64,000 bases of DNA from an uncultured Candidatus Binatia bacterium (GTDB lineage Bacteria > Desulfobacterota > Binatia > UBA9968 > CAXXLF01), in contig OZ244621.1 in the NCBI GenBank assembly GCA_965218425.1, forward strand, positions 3,296,001-3,360,000, read 5' to 3'. A program made the position numbers and the translations under genes. The notes under the pieces were generated by a model, which did no database searches, was not told where the DNA came from, and saw only the letters and a list, made by a program, of their open reading frames with translations. Positions 2,947-59,066 of the stretch are shown piece by piece; position 1 is the first letter of the stretch, and each line of letters starts with the position of its first letter.

Positions 2947-3170
2947 TGGTTCCTCCTAGACTAATGTTACACAGCAACCTTGTCCTAGAGATCTATGCGG
3001 TCCGCACCAAGGGAGCCGAGTTTGGTCCCGTAAGACAAACGATGAAGTTATATTGCGGATCCCAAATAGTGCATTAAAAATCTCCAAATGGGGCATCATT
3101 GAGAACCATGATTAACAGCCTCCTCGCCTTTTGGCAAGATATCTGAGCCAGCCGTCACCCACGTTGCTGC

Positions 3171-4143
3171 GAGCTATCATCAAAGAGTGTGGAAATAGGA
3201 GACAGGTAGGCGTACCCATTGGTAAATTCCAAACGAAAAGCTGCCTGGAGCAACAGGCAGAGAAAGGATACGCCGGTGATAGGAAAGCACAGCGGGCTGG
3301 TAGAGTCAAAGGGAGTTTTTTACGAATGCATGGAGGCATTTGCCCGGGAGAAGATTGGGGAGAAAGGGTACAGGATGTGGTGGAGCAGGAAGGAGTGGAG
3401 CGGTTGGGGAGGAACAAGAGCGAGGGGAAAGCAAGTGAAGTGGGACAGCCTGGGAATCGCAACGGCTACGGTAAGCCGCGCCGGTTCACGTTGAGCATGG
3501 GGAGCGTAGAGGTAAGAGGGGCTGGGGTAAGGAATGTGCAGGAGAGATTTAGCTTCCAGGTATTGCCGTTATTTAAGCGGCAGAGCCGCCAGGTCAGGGA
3601 GTTATTGCCGGAGCTTTATTGGCACGGTGTGGGCAGTGGGGATTTTGAGCTGGGGCTGAGGGGGCTAGTGGGAGCAGGGGCACCGCTATCGGCGTTTTGG
3701 CTTTTACGGTTCAAGGAGAAGTGGGAGGCGGACTACGAGCAGTGGGAGGCACAGGGTATGGAGGAAGAGGAGGCAGCATATCTTTGGGCAGATGGGATTG
3801 ATGTAAAGGCTGGGATAGGCAAGGAGAAGGCGGCGCTAGTATTGGTAGTGATGGGGGCGATGAGGGATGGGAGCAAGAGGTTGTTAGCATTGGAAGTGGG
3901 CTAGCGGGAGAGCAAGCAATGGTGGGCAGAGGTACTCAGGGGAGTGAAGGGGCGGGGGCTTAAGAGTGCGCGTTTTATTGTTGGGGAGGGGCATCTGGGG
4001 TTGTGGGGGGGTGCAGGAGAGATTTTTCCTGAAGCTGGGGAGCAGATCTGCTCGAATCACAAGATTCTCACGGGGTGGATGCTGTGAGTAAAAAGGATCA
4101 GGCCAAGGCCAAGGGTTATCTCAAAGCCATGATGTATGCGGAC
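3171..4143 (+). mobile_element. IS256-family relic, copy 1 (pseudogenised, truncated by an IS3 element)
   Basis: RNGYGKPRRFTL, YLWADGIDVK motifs; left IR GAGCTATCATCAAAGAGTGTGGAAA; internal TAG at 3902-3904. Confidence 0.85.
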
Positions 4144-5343
4144 TGACCTGCTCCCCTTTTTGTCCTCACGTATAAGTTAGCCGTGTTTCGTTATGGTCCG
4201 ATCCGGACCGGATTGCAAACTCCATCGGTGTGAGTCCGTCGAGGCTCGTGTGTGGTCTCTTGGCGTTGTAGTCGGCTCTCCAGTCTTCGATGATCTCGCG
4301 GGCATGGCGGTAGCTGGTGAACAGGTGTTCGTTGAGGCATTCGTCACGCAGAGGCCCGATGAAGCTCTCGACTAGCCCGTTCTGCATAGGCTTGCCTGGA
4401 GCGATGTAGTGCCACTCTACCCGGCGACCCTGCTGCCATCGCAGCATCACGTTGGAGGTGAACTCGGTGCCGTTGTCGGAAACCACCAACAAGGGATAAC
4501 CACGCTGTTGAGCGATGTTGTCCAGCTCTGTGGCGACCCGCTCGCCGGTGATGGAGTTGCTGAGGACGGTGGCCAGGCACTCCCGTGTGAAGTCGTCGAT
4601 CACGCAGAAAAGGCGCAAGCGCTGGCTGTCGCTCAGGGCGTCGGATGCGAAGTCCACCGACCAGCGCTGATTGGCCCCCTGCGGGATCGTCATCGGCACC
4701 CGGCTCCCAACAGCCCGCTTGCGGCCGCCTCGTTTGCGCACCGTCAACTTCTCCTCCTTGTAGAGCCGGTACAGCTTCTTGCGGTTCACCACCACGCCCT
4801 CCCGCAAAAGCAACAGGTGCACACGCCGATACCCAAACCGACGACGTTCCGCCACCAACTCCCGCAGCCTTTACCGTAACTCCCCGTCATCGGGTCTCAT
4901 CGACCGATACCGCTTACACCCGCGGCTCCATGCCCACCAGAGCGCAAGCCCGCCGCTGCCAGTGCCCTCTTTCCTTCATCGCCCGGTCCACCGCTCCTCT
5001 CCTGGTCCTGGGCGTCAGAAGTTTTTTCCCACCATCTCCTTAAGCGTCGATACGTCCAGCATCGCTTCCGCCAATAGACGCTTCAGCTTGGCGTTCTGCG
5101 CCTCAAGGTTCCCAAGCCGTTTCGCTTCCGACACCTCCAACCCACCATACTTCGAACGCCACTTGTACAACGTCGCGTCGCTGATGCCGTACTTGCGACA
5201 CAACTCCGCCACCCCACGCCCAGCCTGGTGCTCCTTCAGTATCCCGATGATCTGTTGTTCGCTGAATCGGCTCTTGCGCATGTGTCCTCTCCTCCTGGGT
5301 CAATCACTAACCTCGAGGTGAGGACATTCAAGGGGGCAGGTCA
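4144..5343 (-). mobile_element. IS3-family (IS407-group-like) element, orfB disrupted
   Basis: IRs TGACCTGC(T/C)CCC...TGTCCTCAC; orfA 5015-5281 (MRKSRFSEQQII), AAAAAAC slippery site, orfB with WSVDF/DNGTEF/ES motifs; stops and a frameshift near 4870-4915; no TSD. Confidence 0.92.
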
Positions 5344-5791: not shown

Positions 5792-7059
5792 TGACCTTGC
5801 CCCCTAAAACGAGTCCAGGTGAAATGTTAGGGATTTTGATTTTAGGAAGGAGGCAAGGATGGCAAGAAAGCGATTTACGGCCGAGTAGATTATCCTCAAG
5901 CTGCGTGAGGCGGAGGTGAGCTTGGCCCAAGGGAAGGCGGTGGGCCAGGTGTGCAAGCAGGTGGGGGTAACCGTGCAGACCTACTACCGGTGGAGGAAGG
6001 AATATGGAGGCCTGAAGATGGATCAGGCCAAGAGGCTCAAGGCCTTGGACAAGGAGAATGCGCGGTTGAAGAAGCTGGTGGCGGATCTATCGCTGGACAA
6101 CCAGATCCTGAAGGAAGTGTCCTCGGGAAACTTCTAGGCCCGGCGAAGAGGAGACGAGCGGTGATATGGGCCAGAGAAAGATTGGGACCTGATCGAGTCT
6201 CCGAACGCCGGGCTTGCCAAGTGTTGGGACAGCCGCGATCGACGCAACGAAGAGTCCGAGAGATCCCGGAAGAGGAAGCAAGACTAGTGGCTCGGATGAT
6301 GGAGCTGGCCAGCGAATACGGGCGATACGGCTACCGGAGGATTACGGCCATGCTGCGTGGGGAGGGGTGGAAGGTCAACCACAAGCGAGTGGAGAGGCTC
6401 TGGAGGCAGGAAGGGCTGAAAGTCCTCAGCCGTCAGCCTAAGCGAGGGAGGCTCCGGTTGACTGATGGCTCCTGCATTCGCCTGAGACCGGCGCATCGAA
6501 ACCATGTGTGGAGTTATGACTTCGTGCACGAGCGAACCGAAGACGGTCGGGCCTTTCGGCTGTTGAGCAGCCTGGATGAATACACCCGGGAGTGCTTGGC
6601 GATTGATGTGGCCAGACGGATGAATCACCGGGATGTGCTGGAACGGTTAGCGGAGCTATTCGTGGAACGGGGCGTGCCGCAGTCCCTTCGGTCCGACAAT
6701 GGCCCCGAGTTTACGGCTCAGGCTATCCGGGACTGGCTCAAGGCCATTGGTGTCAGGACACTCTACATCGAGCCTGGCAGTCCTTGGGAGAATGGCTACG
6801 TGGAGAGTTTTAACGGAAAACTCAGGGATGAGCTGCTCAACCGGGAGGTGTTTGAAACCCTGAGGGAAGCTCAGGTGCTGATCGAAAGATGGAGAAGAGA
6901 GTATAACCAGCGGCGGCCTCACAGCGCCCTGGGCTATCGTTCTCCGGCACCGGAGGCCTTTCTGCCCAGAGCGCAGGCTGGGAATTCATCCCCATGGGCT
7001 GGACTCCAGATAATTCCGGCTCTAACTTAAAGGGTGGTACCACTCCTGGGGGCAGGTCA
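5792..7059 (+). mobile_element. IS3-family element, copy 1 (orfA has a nonsense mutation)
   Basis: TGA...TCA ends with imperfect IRs; orfA ATG 5859 with TAG at codon 10 (5886-5888); GGGAAAC frameshift heptamer at 6125-6131; orfB integrase core to 7030; near-identical to 57770-59037. Confidence 0.95.
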
Positions 7060-8857: not shown

Positions 8858-9846
8858 GAGCTATCATCAAAGAGTGTGGAAATAGGAGACAGGTAGGCGT
8901 ACCCATTGGTAAATTCCAAACGAAAAGCTGCCTGGAGCAACAGGCAGAGAAAGGATACGCCGGTGATAGGAAAGCACAGCGGGCTGGTAGAGTCAAAGGG
9001 AGTTTTTTACGAATGCATGGAGGCATTTGCCCGGGAGAAGATTGGGGAGAAAGGGTACAGGATGTGGTGGAGCAGGAAGGAGTGGAGCGGTTGGGGAGGA
9101 ACAAGAGCGAGGGGAAAGCAAGTGAAGTGGGACAGCCTGGGAATCGCAACGGCTACGGTAAGCCGCGCCGGTTCACGTTGAGCATGGGGAGCGTAGAGGT
9201 AAGAGGGGCTGGGGTAAGGAATGTGCAGGAGAGATTTAGCTTCCAGGTATTGCCGTTATTTAAGCGGCAGAGCCGCCAGGTCAGGGAGTTATTGCCGGAG
9301 CTTTATTGGCACGGTGTGGGCAGTGGGGATTTTGAGCTGGGGCTGAGGGGGCTAGTGGGAGCAGGGGCACCGCTATCGGCGTTTTGGCTTTTACGGTTCA
9401 AGGAGAAGTGGGAGGCGGACTACGAGCAGTGGGAGGCACAGGGTATGGAGGAAGAGGAGGCAGCATATCTTTGGGCAGATGGGATTGATGTAAAGGCTGG
9501 GATAGGCAAGGAGAAGGCGGCGCTAGTATTGGTAGTGATGGGGGCGATGAGGGATGGGAGCAAGAGGTTGTTAGCATTGGAAGTGGGCTAGCGGGAGAGC
9601 AAGCAATGAGTCGCCCTTCTCGAGGGTGAGGCTGAGAACAGCTGCCTCCAGACGGTTTAAATCTCAGGTCAATGCCGCCTGTTTGATCTGGAAGACAATG
9701 ATGATTGCGGAAATGAGTTTTAGGAAGCTGGACGCACCGCACTGGGTGGAGAAGGTAGCTGAAGGAAGAAAATACGGAGACGGGATTGGAATCGAAAAAA
9801 CCAGGGTCGCCGCCTAGATCTTTTACCCGCTATTTGACAACAGATC
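8858..9846 (+). mobile_element. IS256-family relic, copy 2 (internally deleted, both IRs present)
   Basis: 8858-9608 appears identical to 3171-3921, then jumps to the C-terminal part (ESPFSRVRLRT...RVAA); right IR TTTACCCGCTATTTGACAACAGATC. Confidence 0.85.
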
Positions 9847-13350: not shown

Positions 13351-14082
13351 TTATTGAGGCAAGGGCCATTCCCGGAGTAGCCGCCCTCCACCCTCAATGT
13401 GAAATTTCAGATCTAGTTTAGTCAGAATATGCCATAGCATTGCCGGGTTGCTTGCAACCGTTGTGGTCTTTAGGTCGTGCTCGATGCGTTCCAAGACGGG
13501 CAGCGGGTCGAGGCGACCCCCCTGAAAGTAGATCCCATCTGCCCCTGAGTTGGCGGTGAGCTCACGCTTTGCGAGTGCGAAGACCTCGTCTGGAGCCGCC
13601 GCGGCAGCGGCTTCGATGCTGGTAAAGTATCTTGTGGGTAATAGCGGCTGTATGCCGGACTGGCTGAGATAAGCTGCCAGGCGTTCGTTCAATGGTGCAT
13701 CGAATGGTGTTAAGAGCAGGGGCCTTCGAATGAGCAGGGCGCGCATTGCCGCGATACTCGCCTCCAAAGCGGTGGTTACGGGAATTCCTATGGCATCCCG
13801 GATCCGCAGGATCGCCTCGGGGTAAAGGAGCTCATTTGGAGCCACGGGCAGCGCAATGGCGTCCCACTTTCGTTCCCCCACTAGGGTTGCGGCCCTTTGG
13901 ACGTACTCATGGACTATCTGCAGTTGGGGGCGATGTGATTCATGCCACAAGCTGAGTCCCTCCACTTGCAGTTCAACTCCCCTCGGCACCAGGGCGAGCA
14001 GGCCTTCGTAGTGACGTGCTCGGGTACCGCCGGTTCCACGACCGCTGAGAAATGCGATGGTTGTCTGGTGTTGCCGCGTCAT
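13351..14082 (-). CDS. Maleate isomerase/arylmalonate decarboxylase-like protein (Asp/Glu racemase superfamily), Cys-less
   Basis: GIPVTT, LLTPF, ADGIYF, VASNPAMLW, GGGRLL family pattern. Confidence 0.75.
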   Translation of the reverse strand: MTRQHQTTIAFLSGRGTGGTRARHYEGLLALVPRGVELQVEGLSLWHESHRPQLQIVHEYVQRAATLVGERKWDAIALPVAPNELLYPEAILRIRDAIGIPVTTALEASIAAMRALLIRRPLLLTPFDAPLNERLAAYLSQSGIQPLLPTRYFTSIEAAAAAAPDEVFALAKRELTANSGADGIYFQGGRLDPLPVLERIEHDLKTTTVASNPAMLWHILTKLDLKFHIEGGGRLLREWPLPQ

Positions 14083-14183
14083 GACAATTCCCTCAGGTGA
14101 AGGCGGGAAACCAACCCTGACCGGTCTCCGTAATTCGCACGCAGATTACTCTTGGGCGATCGATATTGTCAACCACCACTCAT

Positions 14184-14434
14184 CGCTCCTCGGGGAGCGA
14201 TCCTCCGGCCGCGGGCAATAGGCCGGTGATTATCCGAAGCGGAACGTTCGATGCCCACGGCCTTACGTCTCGCTCCCCTGCGTCGCCTTCCGGATTGGGG
14301 CGCAGGGGACCTGCCTCGAAAAAAGGAAGACGTCCGATACTGGAGGCTCCAATCACATTAGCATGCCGGATGAAATGACGAAGCCTCGAGGCAGAGGCCC
14401 ATCGGCTCCCGTTGAGGGGCGGGCCCCCAGCCCC
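14184..14434 (+). repeat. Structured intergenic repeat, copy A (full length)
   Basis: Aligns over ~250 bp with 57421-57672; multiple hairpins. Confidence 0.85.
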
Positions 14435-14553
14435 TTTTATTATTAATGATCTGCTTCTCAGGCGTTGAAACCTTCGCTGTCTTCACATACCAGCAATCAT
14501 CCTATATAAAGGGTCATTCGTCGGTAATGATTACTTGAGGAGGATATAGAAAA

Positions 14554-15654
14554 GTGATGAAATTTATTGATGCTGACGCCCACGTGGAAGAGTCTGATGA
14601 GATGTGGAAGCTGCTGGATCCGGCCTTTTCCTCACGACGCCCTATCCCCGTGAGCCTTCCCGAGGACACAACCTTCGGTAGATTCAACGCCTTCTGGCTT
14701 ATCGACGGGGAGGTCTTCCCCAAAATGTACGGTAGGGTTTATTTTACCTTCGGTTCGCCGCCCATCTCCGATGTCGCAAAAGCAAAGGCCGTTACGATTC
14801 CTTCCCAAACCCTGGCGGATGTACCCGCGCGTATCAAAGACCTCGATGCCATGGGGATCGAAACACAGGTGGTTTTCCCAACTTTGTTCCTCGCCCCCGT
14901 GTGTGAAGATGTGGAATATGAGGCGGCTCTGTGCCGGGCCTACAATGATTTCATGGGTGCGGCTTCCCAGAAGAGTGGAGGAAGGATCCGGTGGGCGGCG
15001 GTGCTGCCCGTTCGAGATGCCCGCAGAGCGGCTGACGAAATAAGCCGGGTGAAATCTCAGGGTGCGGTGACCACGATCCTTCTGAGTTTCGTATGGGATT
15101 TGCCACTGGATAGCCGGCAGTTTTATCCATTTTATGAGGCATGTGCGGCAGAGAACTTTCCGGTTTCCATCCACCTTGGATGGGGGTCGCCATCCATAAA
15201 CCGGCTCTTCGACACCAGGACCCAGACGCGCTACACCTCATCGGCCAATTCCGTTCCCCTGCTCATGGCGTTCAATTCCATGACGGCGGGTGGTGTTCTG
15301 GATGACGTGCCGGGGCTCAGAGTGTCGTTCCTCGAGATTGGCGTCGAGTGGGTGTCCTATGCCACCAGATTTGGCAACCGTCGGCGGCGGGCGGGAGAGG
15401 GGCGCGCCCAAAAGCCCCTTGAAGACTATTTCCGGGACGGGCAGGTTTATATCAGTTGCGAGCCCGACGAGGATATTCCCTACGTCATGCAGCGCATTGG
15501 GGCGGATGGACTGATGCTGGCTTCGGATTATCCCCACGAAGATCCCATGGCCGAGGGGAATCTTCTCGCGGAATTGACTAGGCGGGAGGATCTATCTGAC
15601 GAGATAAAGAATAAGATTCTAATGGAGAATCCCGCCCGATTTTACGGCCTCTAG
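14554..15654 (+). CDS. Amidohydrolase family protein (Amidohydro_2)
   Basis: FIDADAH, VSIHLG, LASDYPH; paralogue of 10062-11141. Confidence 0.9.
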   Translation: MMKFIDADAHVEESDEMWKLLDPAFSSRRPIPVSLPEDTTFGRFNAFWLIDGEVFPKMYGRVYFTFGSPPISDVAKAKAVTIPSQTLADVPARIKDLDAMGIETQVVFPTLFLAPVCEDVEYEAALCRAYNDFMGAASQKSGGRIRWAAVLPVRDARRAADEISRVKSQGAVTTILLSFVWDLPLDSRQFYPFYEACAAENFPVSIHLGWGSPSINRLFDTRTQTRYTSSANSVPLLMAFNSMTAGGVLDDVPGLRVSFLEIGVEWVSYATRFGNRRRRAGEGRAQKPLEDYFRDGQVYISCEPDEDIPYVMQRIGADGLMLASDYPHEDPMAEGNLLAELTRREDLSDEIKNKILMENPARFYGL

Positions 15655-16509: not shown

Positions 16510-17514
16510 TTAAGCTGCGAGAAGCCGGTCCACCGCGCGGTTTTCGATGACCTCCAAGCCACACTTCTCGAGGAGCTCACGGAGCTTTCGGACCTCCTCC
16601 GGCCTGGGCTTCGGCATGGGAGGGCGCATGAAAGGCTCGGGGATGAGACCGCGTAACCAGCAGGCGATTTTGTAGCGGGTGTGCAGTCGATAATCTTCGC
16701 CGAAACCGTAGACGTACTCGTGCAACTCAGCCATTCCCGAATTCCAGATTTTGCGCGCCTTTTCTATGTCGCCTCTCCGCCACGCCTCGATGTGATCGAT
16801 CATGGGTTCCATGGCGTAATTGAAAGAGCCGGTGACGGTGCCGTCCACTTGTCCCGTGGCCCAGAACTCATGAAAGCACACAGCCGAGGCGGCCAGAATG
16901 GCCACGCGTCGGGGGAGTTGGCGCAGGCCGCGGGCGATGACCCGATAACCGTTGTAAGGATAAGTCATCTTCCAGCCGATGATCTGCGGAATATCAGTGC
17001 ACATCTTTATCGTTGCCGACAGAGGCAGCCCGTGCCCGAACTTGGGAGTGGTGGAGGAGACGGGGTGGGTGATGGCCGGGAGGTCCACGGCATCACAGAC
17101 TTCCTTGGCCATATCTACCCAAACGTCCGGATATCGTTCCGCGTTCCAAGAACCGGTCACATCCATGGCTCCCATGGGTGGAATCAAGAAGACCCCATTG
17201 GCCCCCGCCGCCTTGGCGTCACGGGCATCCTGAACGGTGTCTTTGGTGGTGGGTGCGATTACACCAGCAAATACGGGTACCTTTCCGCCACACTCTTCGA
17301 TGGCGATTTCCACGTTGCGTCGTTTTTCCTCCCGCGATAGGTAGAAAACCTCACCGGCTTCGGGGTTAATCACGATTCCCCCGCCCGCATTCACAAACTT
17401 TGGCTGCATGAAATAGCGTAGGAATTCACGCAGCCCAGCCTCATCGATGTCGGTGGTTCCCGGCTTATAGGGCAAACATACCGCGACGTATAGACGTTCA
17501 AGGTCATTGGCCAT
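16510..17514 (-). CDS. Dihydrodipicolinate synthase/class I aldolase family protein
   Basis: AGEVFYLSREEK, VPVFAGV, Schiff-base Lys in IIGWKMT. Confidence 0.85.
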   Translation of the reverse strand: MANDLERLYVAVCLPYKPGTTDIDEAGLREFLRYFMQPKFVNAGGGIVINPEAGEVFYLSREEKRRNVEIAIEECGGKVPVFAGVIAPTTKDTVQDARDAKAAGANGVFLIPPMGAMDVTGSWNAERYPDVWVDMAKEVCDAVDLPAITHPVSSTTPKFGHGLPLSATIKMCTDIPQIIGWKMTYPYNGYRVIARGLRQLPRRVAILAASAVCFHEFWATGQVDGTVTGSFNYAMEPMIDHIEAWRRGDIEKARKIWNSGMAELHEYVYGFGEDYRLHTRYKIACWLRGLIPEPFMRPPMPKPRPEEVRKLRELLEKCGLEVIENRAVDRLLAA

Positions 17515-17578: not shown

Positions 17579-17654
17579 TAGGAGCTATCTTGACCCGAAA
17601 GTACCCAATTAAAGAAAATCTGTCAACTTATGGCGGGGTGTGGTACGGCGAATT

Positions 17655-18020
17655 CGGTTCCGTGAGCCGAGAGCTTCAGCCCTGGTAAAAGTGTGGGAAT
17701 GTTCTTACAGGAACTGGCGTCCCTTCGCTACAGTGGCCCCTCGGCGGGAAGCCTTAGTTGCTCGCTTCGGGCAGCCTCAAAATTCGTTGCGCTCAAACAG
17801 TCGATGCGGCTTTTCCTCAGCTTCGCAGAGGCTTCCAACGCCTCAGGACCAATCTTTCGCTTAGGGACGCCAGCTTCCATTGGGTCGAAAGTGTCCCTAC
17901 CTTTGGACTTGGCCTCCTTCGCACGAGTCCGGCACGCGACGAAGGGGAGTGAGGGGGAAGGCCGTGGACATCGAACGTGTAGCTTCAGATATCCACTGGC
18001 CTATTGCCCGCGGCGTGAAC
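17655..18020 (-). repeat. Structured intergenic repeat, copy B (divergent, interrupted by a palindromic insert)
   Basis: Reverse complement has GCCGCGGGCAATAGGCC...ATATCTGAAGC..ACGTTCGATGTCCACG...CCCCTTCGTCGC; homology resumes (GGCTGAAGCTCTCGGCTCACG) beyond the insert. Confidence 0.75.
17710..17878. repeat. Palindromic MITE/REP-like insert
   Basis: Terminal IR CTGGCGTCCCT (17714-17724) / AGGGACGCCAG (17863-17873); nested GGAAGCCT/AGGCTTCC. Confidence 0.65.
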
Positions 18021-39465: not shown

Positions 39466-39542
39466 GGGCCCATAGCTCAGTTGGTTAGAGCCACCGGCTC
39501 ATAACCGGTAGGTCCCTGGTTCGAATCCAGGTGGGCCCACCA
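39466..39542 (+). tRNA. tRNA with CAT anticodon, most likely tRNA-Ile2 (lysidine-modified)
   Basis: GGGCCCA acceptor stem, anticodon loop CTCATAA, TTCGAA T-loop, encoded CCA; G1-C72 pair argues against initiator tRNA. Confidence 0.92.
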
Positions 39543-41770: not shown

Positions 41771-42553
41771 TTATTTTCCTTGGAATTTAGCCGTTCGCTT
41801 TTCCAAGTATGCCTTGACTCCTTCGTTACCATCGTCGCTCCCAAAGGCCTGATAGAGGACCTCGTGTTCCAGGGCCAGTCCATCGGACAGGGAACCATCA
41901 AGGCCCGCTTGTATGGCGCGTTTAATTTTACCCACTGCAAGGCTTGCCTTGTTGGGTGGGACGAACTGGCCGGCATAGTCCATAACCTGATCCATGAAAT
42001 TATCCTTTTCATAAATATAGTGAATCAGGCCAAACTCCAGGGCCTCCTCATAGGCGATCTGCTTCCCCATGGCACACAGTTCCAATCCCCGACCCCTGCC
42101 TACCAGTCGAGGGAGACGCTGAGTTCCGCCCATACCCGGCATGACGCCGAGATTGACCTCAGCCAGACCAACTCTCCCTGCATCCTTTTTTGCAATACGA
42201 ATATCAGCTGCCATTGCGATCTCCAGTCCGCCGCCGATGGCGTGACCGTTGATGGCGGCAATGATGAGCTTGGGTGTCCGTTCCATGCGCAAGAGAACCT
42301 CGTTCCCGTGCACGGCAAAGTTATATTTGTACGCTAGGGATTGCTTGGCCAGCATGTTGATGTCGGCTCCGGCGGAGAAAAACTTCTCACCGGCTCCCGT
42401 AAGGACGATCACATGGGTGTTTTCATCGAAACGGGCCTGGAGAATACAATCATCGAGCTGACGCAACATCTCGTGGGTGTAAGGATTGGCCGGTGGACTG
42501 TTAATCTCCAACGTAAGGACCCCACCTTCCTTTTTCTGTTCAATGTTCCCCAT
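41771..42553 (-). CDS. Enoyl-CoA hydratase/isomerase
   Basis: FSAGADI, GGGLE, AEVNLGVMPG, GGTQRL. Confidence 0.93.
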   Translation of the reverse strand: MGNIEQKKEGGVLTLEINSPPANPYTHEMLRQLDDCILQARFDENTHVIVLTGAGEKFFSAGADINMLAKQSLAYKYNFAVHGNEVLLRMERTPKLIIAAINGHAIGGGLEIAMAADIRIAKKDAGRVGLAEVNLGVMPGMGGTQRLPRLVGRGRGLELCAMGKQIAYEEALEFGLIHYIYEKDNFMDQVMDYAGQFVPPNKASLAVGKIKRAIQAGLDGSLSDGLALEHEVLYQAFGSDDGNEGVKAYLEKRTAKFQGK

Positions 42554-42640
42554 GGATAGCCTCCTGTGTGAAATTGTCCCTCAATCAATTAACTGTCCTT
42601 GTCCGCTATGTCAAGTCGCCTTCCGTTTCCGGTAACTCGG

Positions 42641-42814
42641 CGCTCCTCGGGGAACGAGTCCTCAGGCCGTGGGCAACAGGCCTGTGAATATCTGAGGCGA
42701 AACGTTCGATGCCCACGCCCTTCATCCTCATTCCCCTCGTCGCTTTTCATTGTCTCCGACTCAGAACTTAGCACTCGTAGCTCAATACTCACTTCGCGGC
42801 AGGCCACCGAGCCC
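42641..42814 (+). repeat. Structured intergenic repeat, copy C (centre replaced by a heptamer array)
   Basis: First ~100 bp nearly identical to 57421-57523; shared 3' end GCAGGCC.CCGAGCCC. Confidence 0.85.
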
Positions 42815-57420: not shown

Positions 57421-57672
57421 CTCTCCTCGGGGAACGAGTCTTCAGGCCGTGGGTAACAGGTCTGTGAATATCTGAAGCGAAACGTTCGATGCCCACGTCC
57501 CTCATCCTCATTCCCCTCGTCGCGCTGCGGGTTTAGGGCGCAGGGGGCCTGGTGCGAAGAAAGGGAGACGTCCGATACTGGAGGTTCATGCCAGCTTGGC
57601 GTGTCGAATTGGATGACGGTGCCTCGTGGCTGAGACCCATCGGCTCCCGCTGAGGGGCAGGCCCCCGAGCCC
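57421..57672 (+). repeat. Structured intergenic repeat, copy D (full length)
   Basis: Collinear with 14184-14434. Confidence 0.85.
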
Positions 57673-57695: not shown

Positions 57696-59066
57696 TCTCC
57701 TCGGGGAACGCGTCCTCAGGCCGTGGGCAACAGGCCTGTGAATAATTGAAACTAAACGTTCGATGCCGATGACCTGCCCCCAGGAGTGGTACCACCCTTT
57801 AAGTTAGAGCCGGAATTATCTGGAGTCCAGCCCATGGGGATGAATTCCCAGCCTGCGCTCTGGGCAGAAAGGCCTCCGGTGCCGGAGAACGATAGCCCAG
57901 GGCGCTGTGAGGCCGCCGCTGGTTATACTCTCTTCTCCATCTTTCGATCAGCACCTGAGCTTCCCTCAGGGTTTCAAACACCTCCCGGTTGAGCAGCTCA
58001 TCCCTGAGTTTTCCGTTAAAACTCTCCACGTAGCCATTCTCCCAAGGACTGCCAGGCTCGATGTAGAGTGTCCTGACACCAATGGCCTTGAGCCAGTCCC
58101 GGATAGCCTGAGCCGTAAACTCGGGGCCATTGTCGGACCGAAGGGACTGCGGCACGCCCCGTTCCACGAATAGCTCCGCTAACCGTTCCAGCACATCCCG
58201 GTGATTCATCCGTCTGGCCACATCAATCGCCAAGCACTCCCGGGTGTATTCATCCAGGATGCTCAACAGCCGAAAGGCCCGACCGTCTTCGGTTCGCTCG
58301 TGCACGAAGTCATAACTCCACACATGGTTTCGATGCGCCGGTCTCAGGCGAATGCAGGAGCCATCAGTCAACCGGAGCCTCCCTCGCTTAGGCTGACGGC
58401 TGAGGACTTTCAGCCCTTCCTGCCTCCAGAGCCTCTCCACTCGCTTGTGGTTGACCTTCCACCCCTCCCCACGCAGCATGGCCGTAATCCTCCGGTAGCC
58501 GTATCGCCCGTATTCGCTGGCCAGCTCCATCATCCGAGCCACTAGTCTTGCTTCCTCTTCCGGGATCTCTCGGACTCTTCGTTGCGTCGATCGCGGCTGT
58601 CCCAACACTTGGCAAGCCCGGCGTTCGGAGACTCGATCAGGTCCCAATCTTTCTCTGGCCCATATCACCGCTCGTCTCCTCTTCGCCGGGCCTAGAAGTT
58701 TCCCGAGGACACTTCCTTCAGGATCTGGTTGTCCAGCGATAGATCCGCCACCAGCTTCTTCAACCGCGCATTCTCCTTGTCCAAGGCCTTGAGCCTCTTG
58801 GCCTGATCCATCTTCAGGCCTCCATATTCCTTCCTCCACCGGTAGTAGGTCTGCACGGTTACCCCCACCTGCTTGCACACCTGGCCCACCGCCTTCCCTT
58901 GGGCCAAGCTCACCTCCGCCTCACGCAGCTTGAGGATAATCTGCTCGGCCGTAAATCGCTTTCTTGCCATCCTTGCCTCCTTCCTAAAATCAAAATCCCT
59001 AACATTTCACCTGGACTCGTTTTAGGGGGCAAGGTCACCGACGCCCTTCATCCCCGCTCCCCTCGG
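57696..59066 (+). repeat. Structured intergenic repeat, copy E (partial, split by IS3: 57696-57769 and 59042-59066)
   Basis: CTCCTCGGGGAACG...ACGTTCGATGCCGA [IS] CGCCCTTCATCCCCGCTCCCCTCG. Confidence 0.8.
57770..59037 (-). mobile_element. IS3-family element, copy 2 (intact orfA 58692-58970 and orfB, -1 frameshift), 4-bp TSD CCGA
   Basis: Terminal IRs; CCGA at 57766-57769 and 59038-59041; DDE integrase core. Confidence 0.96.

Follow-up and report, generated by a model that had tools for sequence, protein, structure and literature searches.

A dispersed intergenic repeat of Candidatus Binatia is probably an ISL3-derived MITE inserted beside promoters

Bacterial MITEs include Chunjie of Geobacter, QMITE of Coxiella, and bcr1 of Bacillus; in the portions of text available from PMC3184786 and PMC10969869, loss of the ends is described for Chunjie and QMITE, Chunjie has 9-bp repeats, and bcr1 has two stem-loops with compensatory changes. 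The repeat analysed here comes from a 64,000-nt stretch (the window) of the genome of an uncultured Candidatus Binatia bacterium (G000; 4.46 Mb, closed, 97% complete). Like these MITEs, it is short, non-coding, and intergenic, with terminal inverted repeats (TIRs) and target duplications in intact copies and many truncated copies that lack them; it is also transposase-free, dispersed, and present or absent at given sites between relatives. It differs in that its two modules fold on opposite strands and in its fixed position relative to −35 boxes, which the available portions of PMC3184786 and PMC10969869 do not mention.

Fixed-distance insertion is known from TnGBS/ISLre2 and ISKra4, which insert 15–17 bp ahead of the −35 box, most often at 16 bp from the end, and ISKra4 members with symmetric ends do so in both orientations, according to the part of the report available (Guerillot et al. 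2014, PMC3942029). The repeat resembles these elements in its fixed-distance insertion upstream of housekeeping −35 boxes and in using both orientations, but they have a Mutator-like transposase and a spacing of 15–17 bp, whereas the partner of the repeat is an ISL3 element and the peak lies at 9 bp. A search with PF06782 (ISLre2) gave no match in five relatives, and the controls were likewise blank. As dispersed intergenic hairpins that form mosaics and tandems, the copies also recall REP/REPIN/BIME sequences with RAYT; however, the repeat is much longer, has TIRs and duplications in intact copies, and none of its copies lies within 5 kb of a Y1 gene. Y1 transposases with a C-terminal extension are found in G000 at 1404080–1405048, 1971000–1971920, and 2583264–2584241, with ends of the GGGGTCAG..CTGACCCC type that are unrelated to the repeat.

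ISL3 elements typically have a GGCTCT tip, and ordinary members make 8-bp duplications in AT-rich DNA. The autonomous partners that we found have the same tip, the DDE_Tnp_ISL3 and zinc-ribbon domains, and a size of 1.3 kb, but differ in a 9-bp duplication next to TTGACA rather than 8 bp in AT-rich DNA. As these duplications are of mixed composition and lie beside TTGACA, the partner appears to belong to a variant ISL3 clade; the ordinary ISL3 elements of the same order have mostly AT-rich flanks and fall outside it. PMC9208149 reports ISL3 elements within 50 bp of genes and gives no fixed position in the text available, and a term search found neither ISL3 nor Binatia in the main text of PMC11602168. 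The listings obtained from the literature contained no report of an ISL3 clade that targets −35 boxes.

Copies in the window and in related genomes

The complete unit of 253 nt comprises module A (positions 1–105), which forms a long and imperfect hairpin, and module B (about 120–253), joined by a short linker; both modules have sharp borders. The five homologous non-coding units listed in an initial annotation of the window were all confirmed, and the core that they share is present in the family consensus. Copy A (14185–14433, + strand; model positions 2–252) is a full unit. Its module A occupies 14185–14286, a hairpin that in the family folds better on the − strand, and its module B occupies 14302–14433 on the + strand, with a covarying outer stem, a GAAG/CUGA internal loop, an ACGU bulge, and a variable apex of ~60 nt. 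Copy B (17654–18019, − strand) is a hybrid of module A and the right half of another repeat, 'family 2', and copy C (42642–42749, + strand; model positions 2–111) contains only module A. Copy D (57422–57672, + strand) is again a full unit and is followed head to tail by copy E, of which the 5′ part of module A (57696–57769, + strand) and the 3′ part (59038–59066, + strand) are one copy split by a 1268-bp IS3-family element (57770–59037, − strand) with a 4-bp duplication, CCGA. An identical copy of this element lies at 5792–7059 in the opposite orientation; we rejected it as the transposase of the repeat. A different IS3-family element occupies ~4090–5300 of the window, and a tRNA gene at 39466–39539 is the sole Rfam match within it. 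In contigs from other public DNA runs, copies A and B were found without differences, and no empty allele of either was seen in the contigs of four DNA runs.

A profile built from 17 long copies gave 79 matches in G000 and none in the reversed genome; these group into 70 loci. Full-length copies (n = 21) have a mean pairwise identity of 78% (range 59–97%), and 49 of the 79 matches begin at model positions 1–5. Modules A and B occur singly, as head-to-tail tandems, and as mosaics with family 2; 35 matches in G000 retain module A with module B partly lost, and nine show the reverse. Loci between convergent genes are rare (8/70, against 16–19% of intergenic regions), another point of contrast with REP/REPIN/BIME sequences. 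Modules A and B harbour other small repeats at L015, L055, L063, L081, L139, and L164, and the element thus serves as a landing site for other repeats.

The repeat is confined to two families of one order, in relatives labelled Candidatus Binatia. A pattern search detected the element in 8 of 301 genomes of the class, and a covariance model matched 34 of 123 genomes of the order (f1, 4/4; f2, 29/90; f3, 0/28), with 1 to at least 25 matches per matched genome and none in the other 89. Viral contigs contained no match to the module-B motif. Sites filled in one genome and empty in the other were seen between G000 and its relative G001, and also for L151 and L122. Orthologous copies of G000 and G001 rank only 4–11 of 21 as each other's matches, which fits either an old burst or conversion, and 5 of 37 flanks from relatives map beside a G000 copy. 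In one intergenic region, the tandem copies of G000 (1774335–1774754) run opposite to those of G001 (L065), which suggests that a single promoter received separate insertions.

Element ends, −35 boxes, and an ISL3 partner

In relatives, the unit is enclosed in 22-bp TIRs, GGCTCT-N6-AAAAGTGTGG, with 9-bp target duplications. The intact order is TIR, module A, module B, TIR; the TIR adjoins module A and lies ~50 nt from module B, a fixed distance. Such elements measure 204–370 bp in relatives, ~370 bp when intact, and form longer mosaics in G000. At 34 loci outside G001 that were picked by the internal motif alone (L110, where the match lies inside a gene, was dropped, and 15 G001 loci were counted apart), the TIR was present at 12 and on both sides at 8, and 6 of these 8 had a duplication of at least 7/9; two genomes supply most of the TIR-bearing loci, which are not independent of one another. 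Among metagenome loci with a candidate second end, 14 of 28 had the duplication. In G001, one of 17 matches had a TIR and 16 had no scored end. Best-hit loci of the covariance model (23, that is 30 minus two from G000 or G001 and five without listed coordinates) had a TIR in five cases, two of these with a −35 box and none with a duplication.

The clearest case in G000 is the copy at 3010685–3011104, where a TIR bounds the unit on either side and the 9-bp duplication is perfect, with TTGACT directly after it. Among seven other TIR pairs or candidate pairs tested in this genome, one has a clear duplication, five reach 4/9 or 5/9, and one more reaches 5/9. A TIR was found within 500 nt of 9 of the 70 loci, against 0.4% of intergenic controls, and flanks of the TIR element of family 2 at 22–24 of 70, against 0/700 controls; these flanks lead to the same TIRs as those of the A–B unit. 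No remnant of a TIR element was scored at 46 of the 70 loci, window copies A, C, and D/E included, and the flanks of copy A retain neither a TIR nor a duplication. Family 2 is itself a 527-bp element with the same TIRs and different long hairpins, has 49 profile matches, and recombines with modules A and B; its copies in G000 include 388940–389462, 951020–951547, 4003228–4003703, and 4405059–4405438.

The statement in the initial annotation that terminal inverted repeats and duplications are absent holds for the five window copies and for the unit's own ends, but not for the family, which has both. At the unit's own ends, an 8/9 repeat within 6 nt was seen in none of 21 full-length copies and within 15 nt in 3 of 21, against 2% of controls.

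At one end of the element, the 9-bp duplication directly adjoins a sigma-70 −35 box, TTGACA. This box was located exactly 9 nt outside the TIR at 7 of the 12 TIR-bearing loci of the internal-motif set. In 30 flanks found by the TIR pattern alone, TGTCAA (TTGACA on the other strand) stood at exactly this distance in 7, against 4 matches over 48 other offsets (p 2e-10, with kin that are not independent). Next to the repeats of G000, the hexamer accompanied 10 of 19 TIR ends at no more than one mismatch, left and right ends alike; half of the ends is the ceiling expected if one end per element faces a promoter. The far ends of L247 and L273, which were unselected, adjoin TTGACC and TTGACA, respectively. 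At L082, G001 has the element before TTGACA and the same promoter in G000 is empty, with a degenerate end read by eye.

A metagenome scan for the hexamer together with the TIR returned 117 loci. The −10 box, which was absent from the search pattern, was present as TAnnnT 16–18 nt after the TIR-adjacent TTGACA in 75 of 111 cases; for comparison, it accompanied 17 of 91 TTGACA located elsewhere in these loci and 181 of 735 from the intergenic DNA of G000. This enrichment makes the targets look like real sigma-70 promoters, and we infer that guidance by RNA polymerase explains them better than the reading of six bases. Five TIR-pattern matches in viral contigs all lacked a −35 box and look like chance, and a scan of 401 genomes of the phylum gave one TIR-pattern match outside the order, also without the box.

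The bias extends to copies without ends. Outward TTGAC[ACT] occurs in 47 of 140 repeat flanks in G000, against a background of 19% and 20 of 140 inward, and end-less copies, window copies A and C among them, still lean to outward −35 boxes. Copy A has an outward TTGACA (14167–14172, − strand) at 12 nt, upstream of the gene at 13351–14082 (− strand), which is likely the promoter that it targeted; a promoter and terminator scan of 14080–14560 returned one weak site and no terminator. Just outside copy B lies a promoter-like TTGACA-17 nt-TACTTT (17598–17626, − strand), upstream of the gene at 16510–17514 (− strand), and copy C has an outward TTGACA (42609–42614, − strand) at 27 nt, upstream of the gene at 41771–42553 (− strand). 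A second insertion sequence of G000 with a 429-aa ORF (six copies, at 1976626, 3722075, 4196514, 328198, 978713, and 2780933) has a 5-bp duplication in five copies and a TGTCAA-like hexamer directly outside in most, and may also target −35 boxes.

Autonomous elements with the same TIRs were found in metagenomes using a pattern that requires TGTCAA. L218 (1328 bp) and L262 (1332 bp) have 9/9 duplications and encode 406-residue ISL3 transposases with DDE_Tnp_ISL3 and Zn_ribbon_ISL3 domains (E 5e-54 and 3e-53); their duplications are 9 bp long, of mixed composition, and lie beside TTGACA. L240 derives from an element of this kind by internal deletion. Altogether the metagenome scan gave 23 end-to-end elements, filtered by a duplication of 7/9, that measure 77 to 1332 bp; their interiors are unrelated and in many cases fold strongly, and L236 and L241 carry module B between the TIRs. 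MITEs with the same TIRs, unrelated interiors, and folding z of −5 to −13 were seen at L219, L226, L253, L257, L286, L290, L294, L325, and L326, and at L282 the TIRs enclose a membrane-protein-like ORF with its own TTGACA.

Together with ten database homologues, five transposases of this type make up one clade (99/99) separate from the ordinary ISL3s of the order, in a tree with long branches; the named homologues belong to Bacillota and Acidobacteriota. Searches of the order's 123 genomes, many of them fragmented assemblies, yielded no transposase of this clade (best identity 30%), so the link between repeat and transposase rests on the shared ends. Because G000 is closed and no member of the clade was found in it, the repeat there is probably stranded without its transposase. 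Viral contigs contained no relative of the transposase, and plasmids only distant ISL3s (best 31.5%). The initial annotation had proposed looking near HUH/Y1, IS110, and reverse transcriptase genes. The 5-kb surroundings of the four Y1 and two IS110 genes of G000 contain no copy, and reverse transcriptase PF00078, which matched 3 of 14 controls, has no match in this genome, which also separates the repeat from retroelement-derived repeats. These enzymes and GIY-YIG were rejected as partners since no link to the copies was seen, as was the ordinary IS256 in L169, whose ends are unrelated.

Pairing in modules A and B

Compensatory changes had been proposed for two stems of the window copies, and both fare poorly in 97 copies from G000 and G001 (matches under 40 bits dropped). 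At CAGGCC/GGCCTG, the five commonest states of the varying column are AT15, AA12, AG9, CG5, and CT3, and this hairpin competes with a better kept long stem; at CCTGCG/CGCAGG, the states are GC13, TC10, GA8, TA6, and TT1. A mutual-information scan of the same copies recovered subfamily structure and not pairing. Both stems are recombining subfamily variants in which pairing is not kept. The whole of copy D folds no better than shuffles (z −0.17 on the + strand and −1.57 on the − strand).

Covariation does exist in the family, in the outer stem of module B. There, 11 of 22 pairs change on both sides, giving 46 two-sided change cells against 9.7 ± 2.6 in shuffles, which do not correct for relatedness (0 of 500 reach this value), and pairing is 95.9%, against 35–56% in slid controls. 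G-U exceeds A-C in module B by 25:6 in G000, by 35:8 in G001, and by 48:3 among 29 copies of other genomes, although part of this excess is inherited from founder copies. For module A on the + strand, the bias is reversed, with A-C favoured 55:21 and 58:27. The − strand gives the better fold for module A (58 of 63 copies), and the + strand for module B (43 of 58 copies). The apex of module B measures 57–64 nt within a search window of 52–72 nt, and its conserved motifs are partly imposed by the searches.

Within G000 and G001, substitutions are as common in conserved stem columns as in unpaired columns, and they are symmetric (in module B, C>T 4.4% and G>A 4.6%). With neither pairing nor strand bias visible in these columns, single copies there are decaying. 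The structural selection invoked in the initial annotation is thus supported for module B across genomes, but not for individual G000 copies nor for the stems that it named. Three sites, next to genes for a zinc-ribbon protein, a glyoxalase, and DciA, are common to different genomes, and module B keeps 13–16 of 16 pairs there; in these low-copy lineages, the arms and apex diverge while the pairs stay. Seven non-independent comparisons gave 18 two-sided and 19 one-sided changes that keep pairing and 9 that break it. The simplest reading is selection on a + strand RNA for module B at these sites, although a strong promoter could also have received the repeat more than once. Inverted repeats can become perfect through template-switch copying in the absence of selection, which is a possible cause of the kept pairing.

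The element gave no Rfam match, at the gathering threshold or at an E-value of 5, and 12 repeat loci gave three weak matches, all below the gathering score. This agrees with the earlier remark that no named RNA family was recognised and lends no support to the suggestion of a new ncRNA or ribozyme. Likeness to HDV, twister, and hairpin ribozymes, group II D5, SRP, and 6S RNA was judged by eye and rejected; none fitted, and Rfam lent them no support either.

Competing explanations for the repeat

Taken together, the repeat is probably an ISL3-derived, promoter-targeting MITE, and the window copies its worn interior; module B may also act as a folded RNA. The kind of element is ordinary, whereas the landing rule is unusual and one well-kept hairpin is unexplained. 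Of the two origins offered initially, the non-autonomous mobile element is supported by the TIRs, the 9-bp duplication, and the matching autonomous ISL3 elements; the same features point to DDE transposition and away from an ssDNA or RNA hairpin intermediate. The transposase would be guided to real promoters, probably via the RNA polymerase holoenzyme, and such insertion would spare both promoters and genes. Following an old burst, deletion would have removed the ends of most copies in the G000 lineage, and the end-less copies would then have been reshuffled into tandem and mosaic forms. Founder copies and some of the old sites would have retained pairing, on the + strand for module B and on the − strand for module A, most simply as RNA hairpins in read-through transcripts.

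What appeared as a new RNA family is better read as a mobile element whose landing rule is precise and for which a candidate enzyme can be named. Should the rule hold, ISL3 would have acquired promoter targeting independently of the Mutator-like transposases, contact between transposase and sigma factor would become testable in a compact 406-residue protein, and such insertions would identify genuine housekeeping promoters of uncultured bacteria. With module B, there is a concrete case in which to ask whether MITE hairpins are selected or merely copied. A broader proposal, which we regard as tentative, is that a new ISL3 clade docks on sigma-70 RNA polymerase and inserts 9 bp before −35 boxes across several phyla, and that the Binatia MITE delivers a structured module B RNA, needed for its spread or else domesticated next to promoters, where it would be a new RNA that acts in cis or is released by RNase III.

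A plain MITE leaves unexplained why module B pairs persist in divergent sequence at the shared sites. Module B could instead be a functional RNA (protein-binding, RNase III-processed, or catalytic) that is carried by the MITE and kept at some promoters, as the outer-stem covariation (46 against 9.7 ± 2.6), the G-U to A-C ratio of 48:3, the 13–16 of 16 pairs at three shared sites, and the apex length of 57–64 nt suggest. We hold this to be possible but doubtful, since stem columns in G000 and G001 change as freely as unpaired ones, copy number varies from 1 to at least 25 with 89 of 123 genomes lacking a match, and Rfam has no counterpart; moreover, the shared sites could reflect repeat insertion, template switching can mimic selection, and the motifs are partly search-imposed. 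Such an RNA role supplements the MITE explanation and does not replace it. Another reading is that modules A and B are independent REP/BIME-like repeats that spread on their own, by an HUH nuclease, rolling-circle copying, or gene conversion, and are sometimes captured between ISL3 ends. Capture does happen, as other TIR pairs enclose unrelated hairpins and even a gene, and the sharp borders, the head-to-tail tandems, the 35 to 9 skew in partial loss, and the missing end remnant at two thirds of G000 loci would all be accounted for. Yet in relatives the TIR adjoins module A and lies a fixed ~50 nt from module B, end-less copies still lean to outward −35 boxes, no copy lies near a Y1, IS110, or reverse transcriptase gene, and other MITEs have lost TIRs and duplications according to the available part of PMC10969869, which makes independent modules unlikely. 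A second route of spread is possible for the roughly two thirds of G000 loci without an end remnant.

The ISL3-derived MITE would have a different enzyme if it were mobilised by the IS256-like (Mutator) transposase present in five broken copies in G000. The left end of that element has the inner part of the TIR in common with the repeat, and relatives at 62–67% identity are intact in the same order. Its tip, however, is GAGCT and not GGCTCT, L185 has an 8-bp duplication without a −35 box, and close relatives were not found in the repeat-rich genomes G001, G003, G004, G315, G325, and G356; we consider this assignment very improbable. The broken IS256-like copies, which contain stops, lie at ~3170–4150 and 8858–9800 of the window and at 1279, 3414304, and 4449327 of G000, and two of them are interrupted by an IS3-family element.
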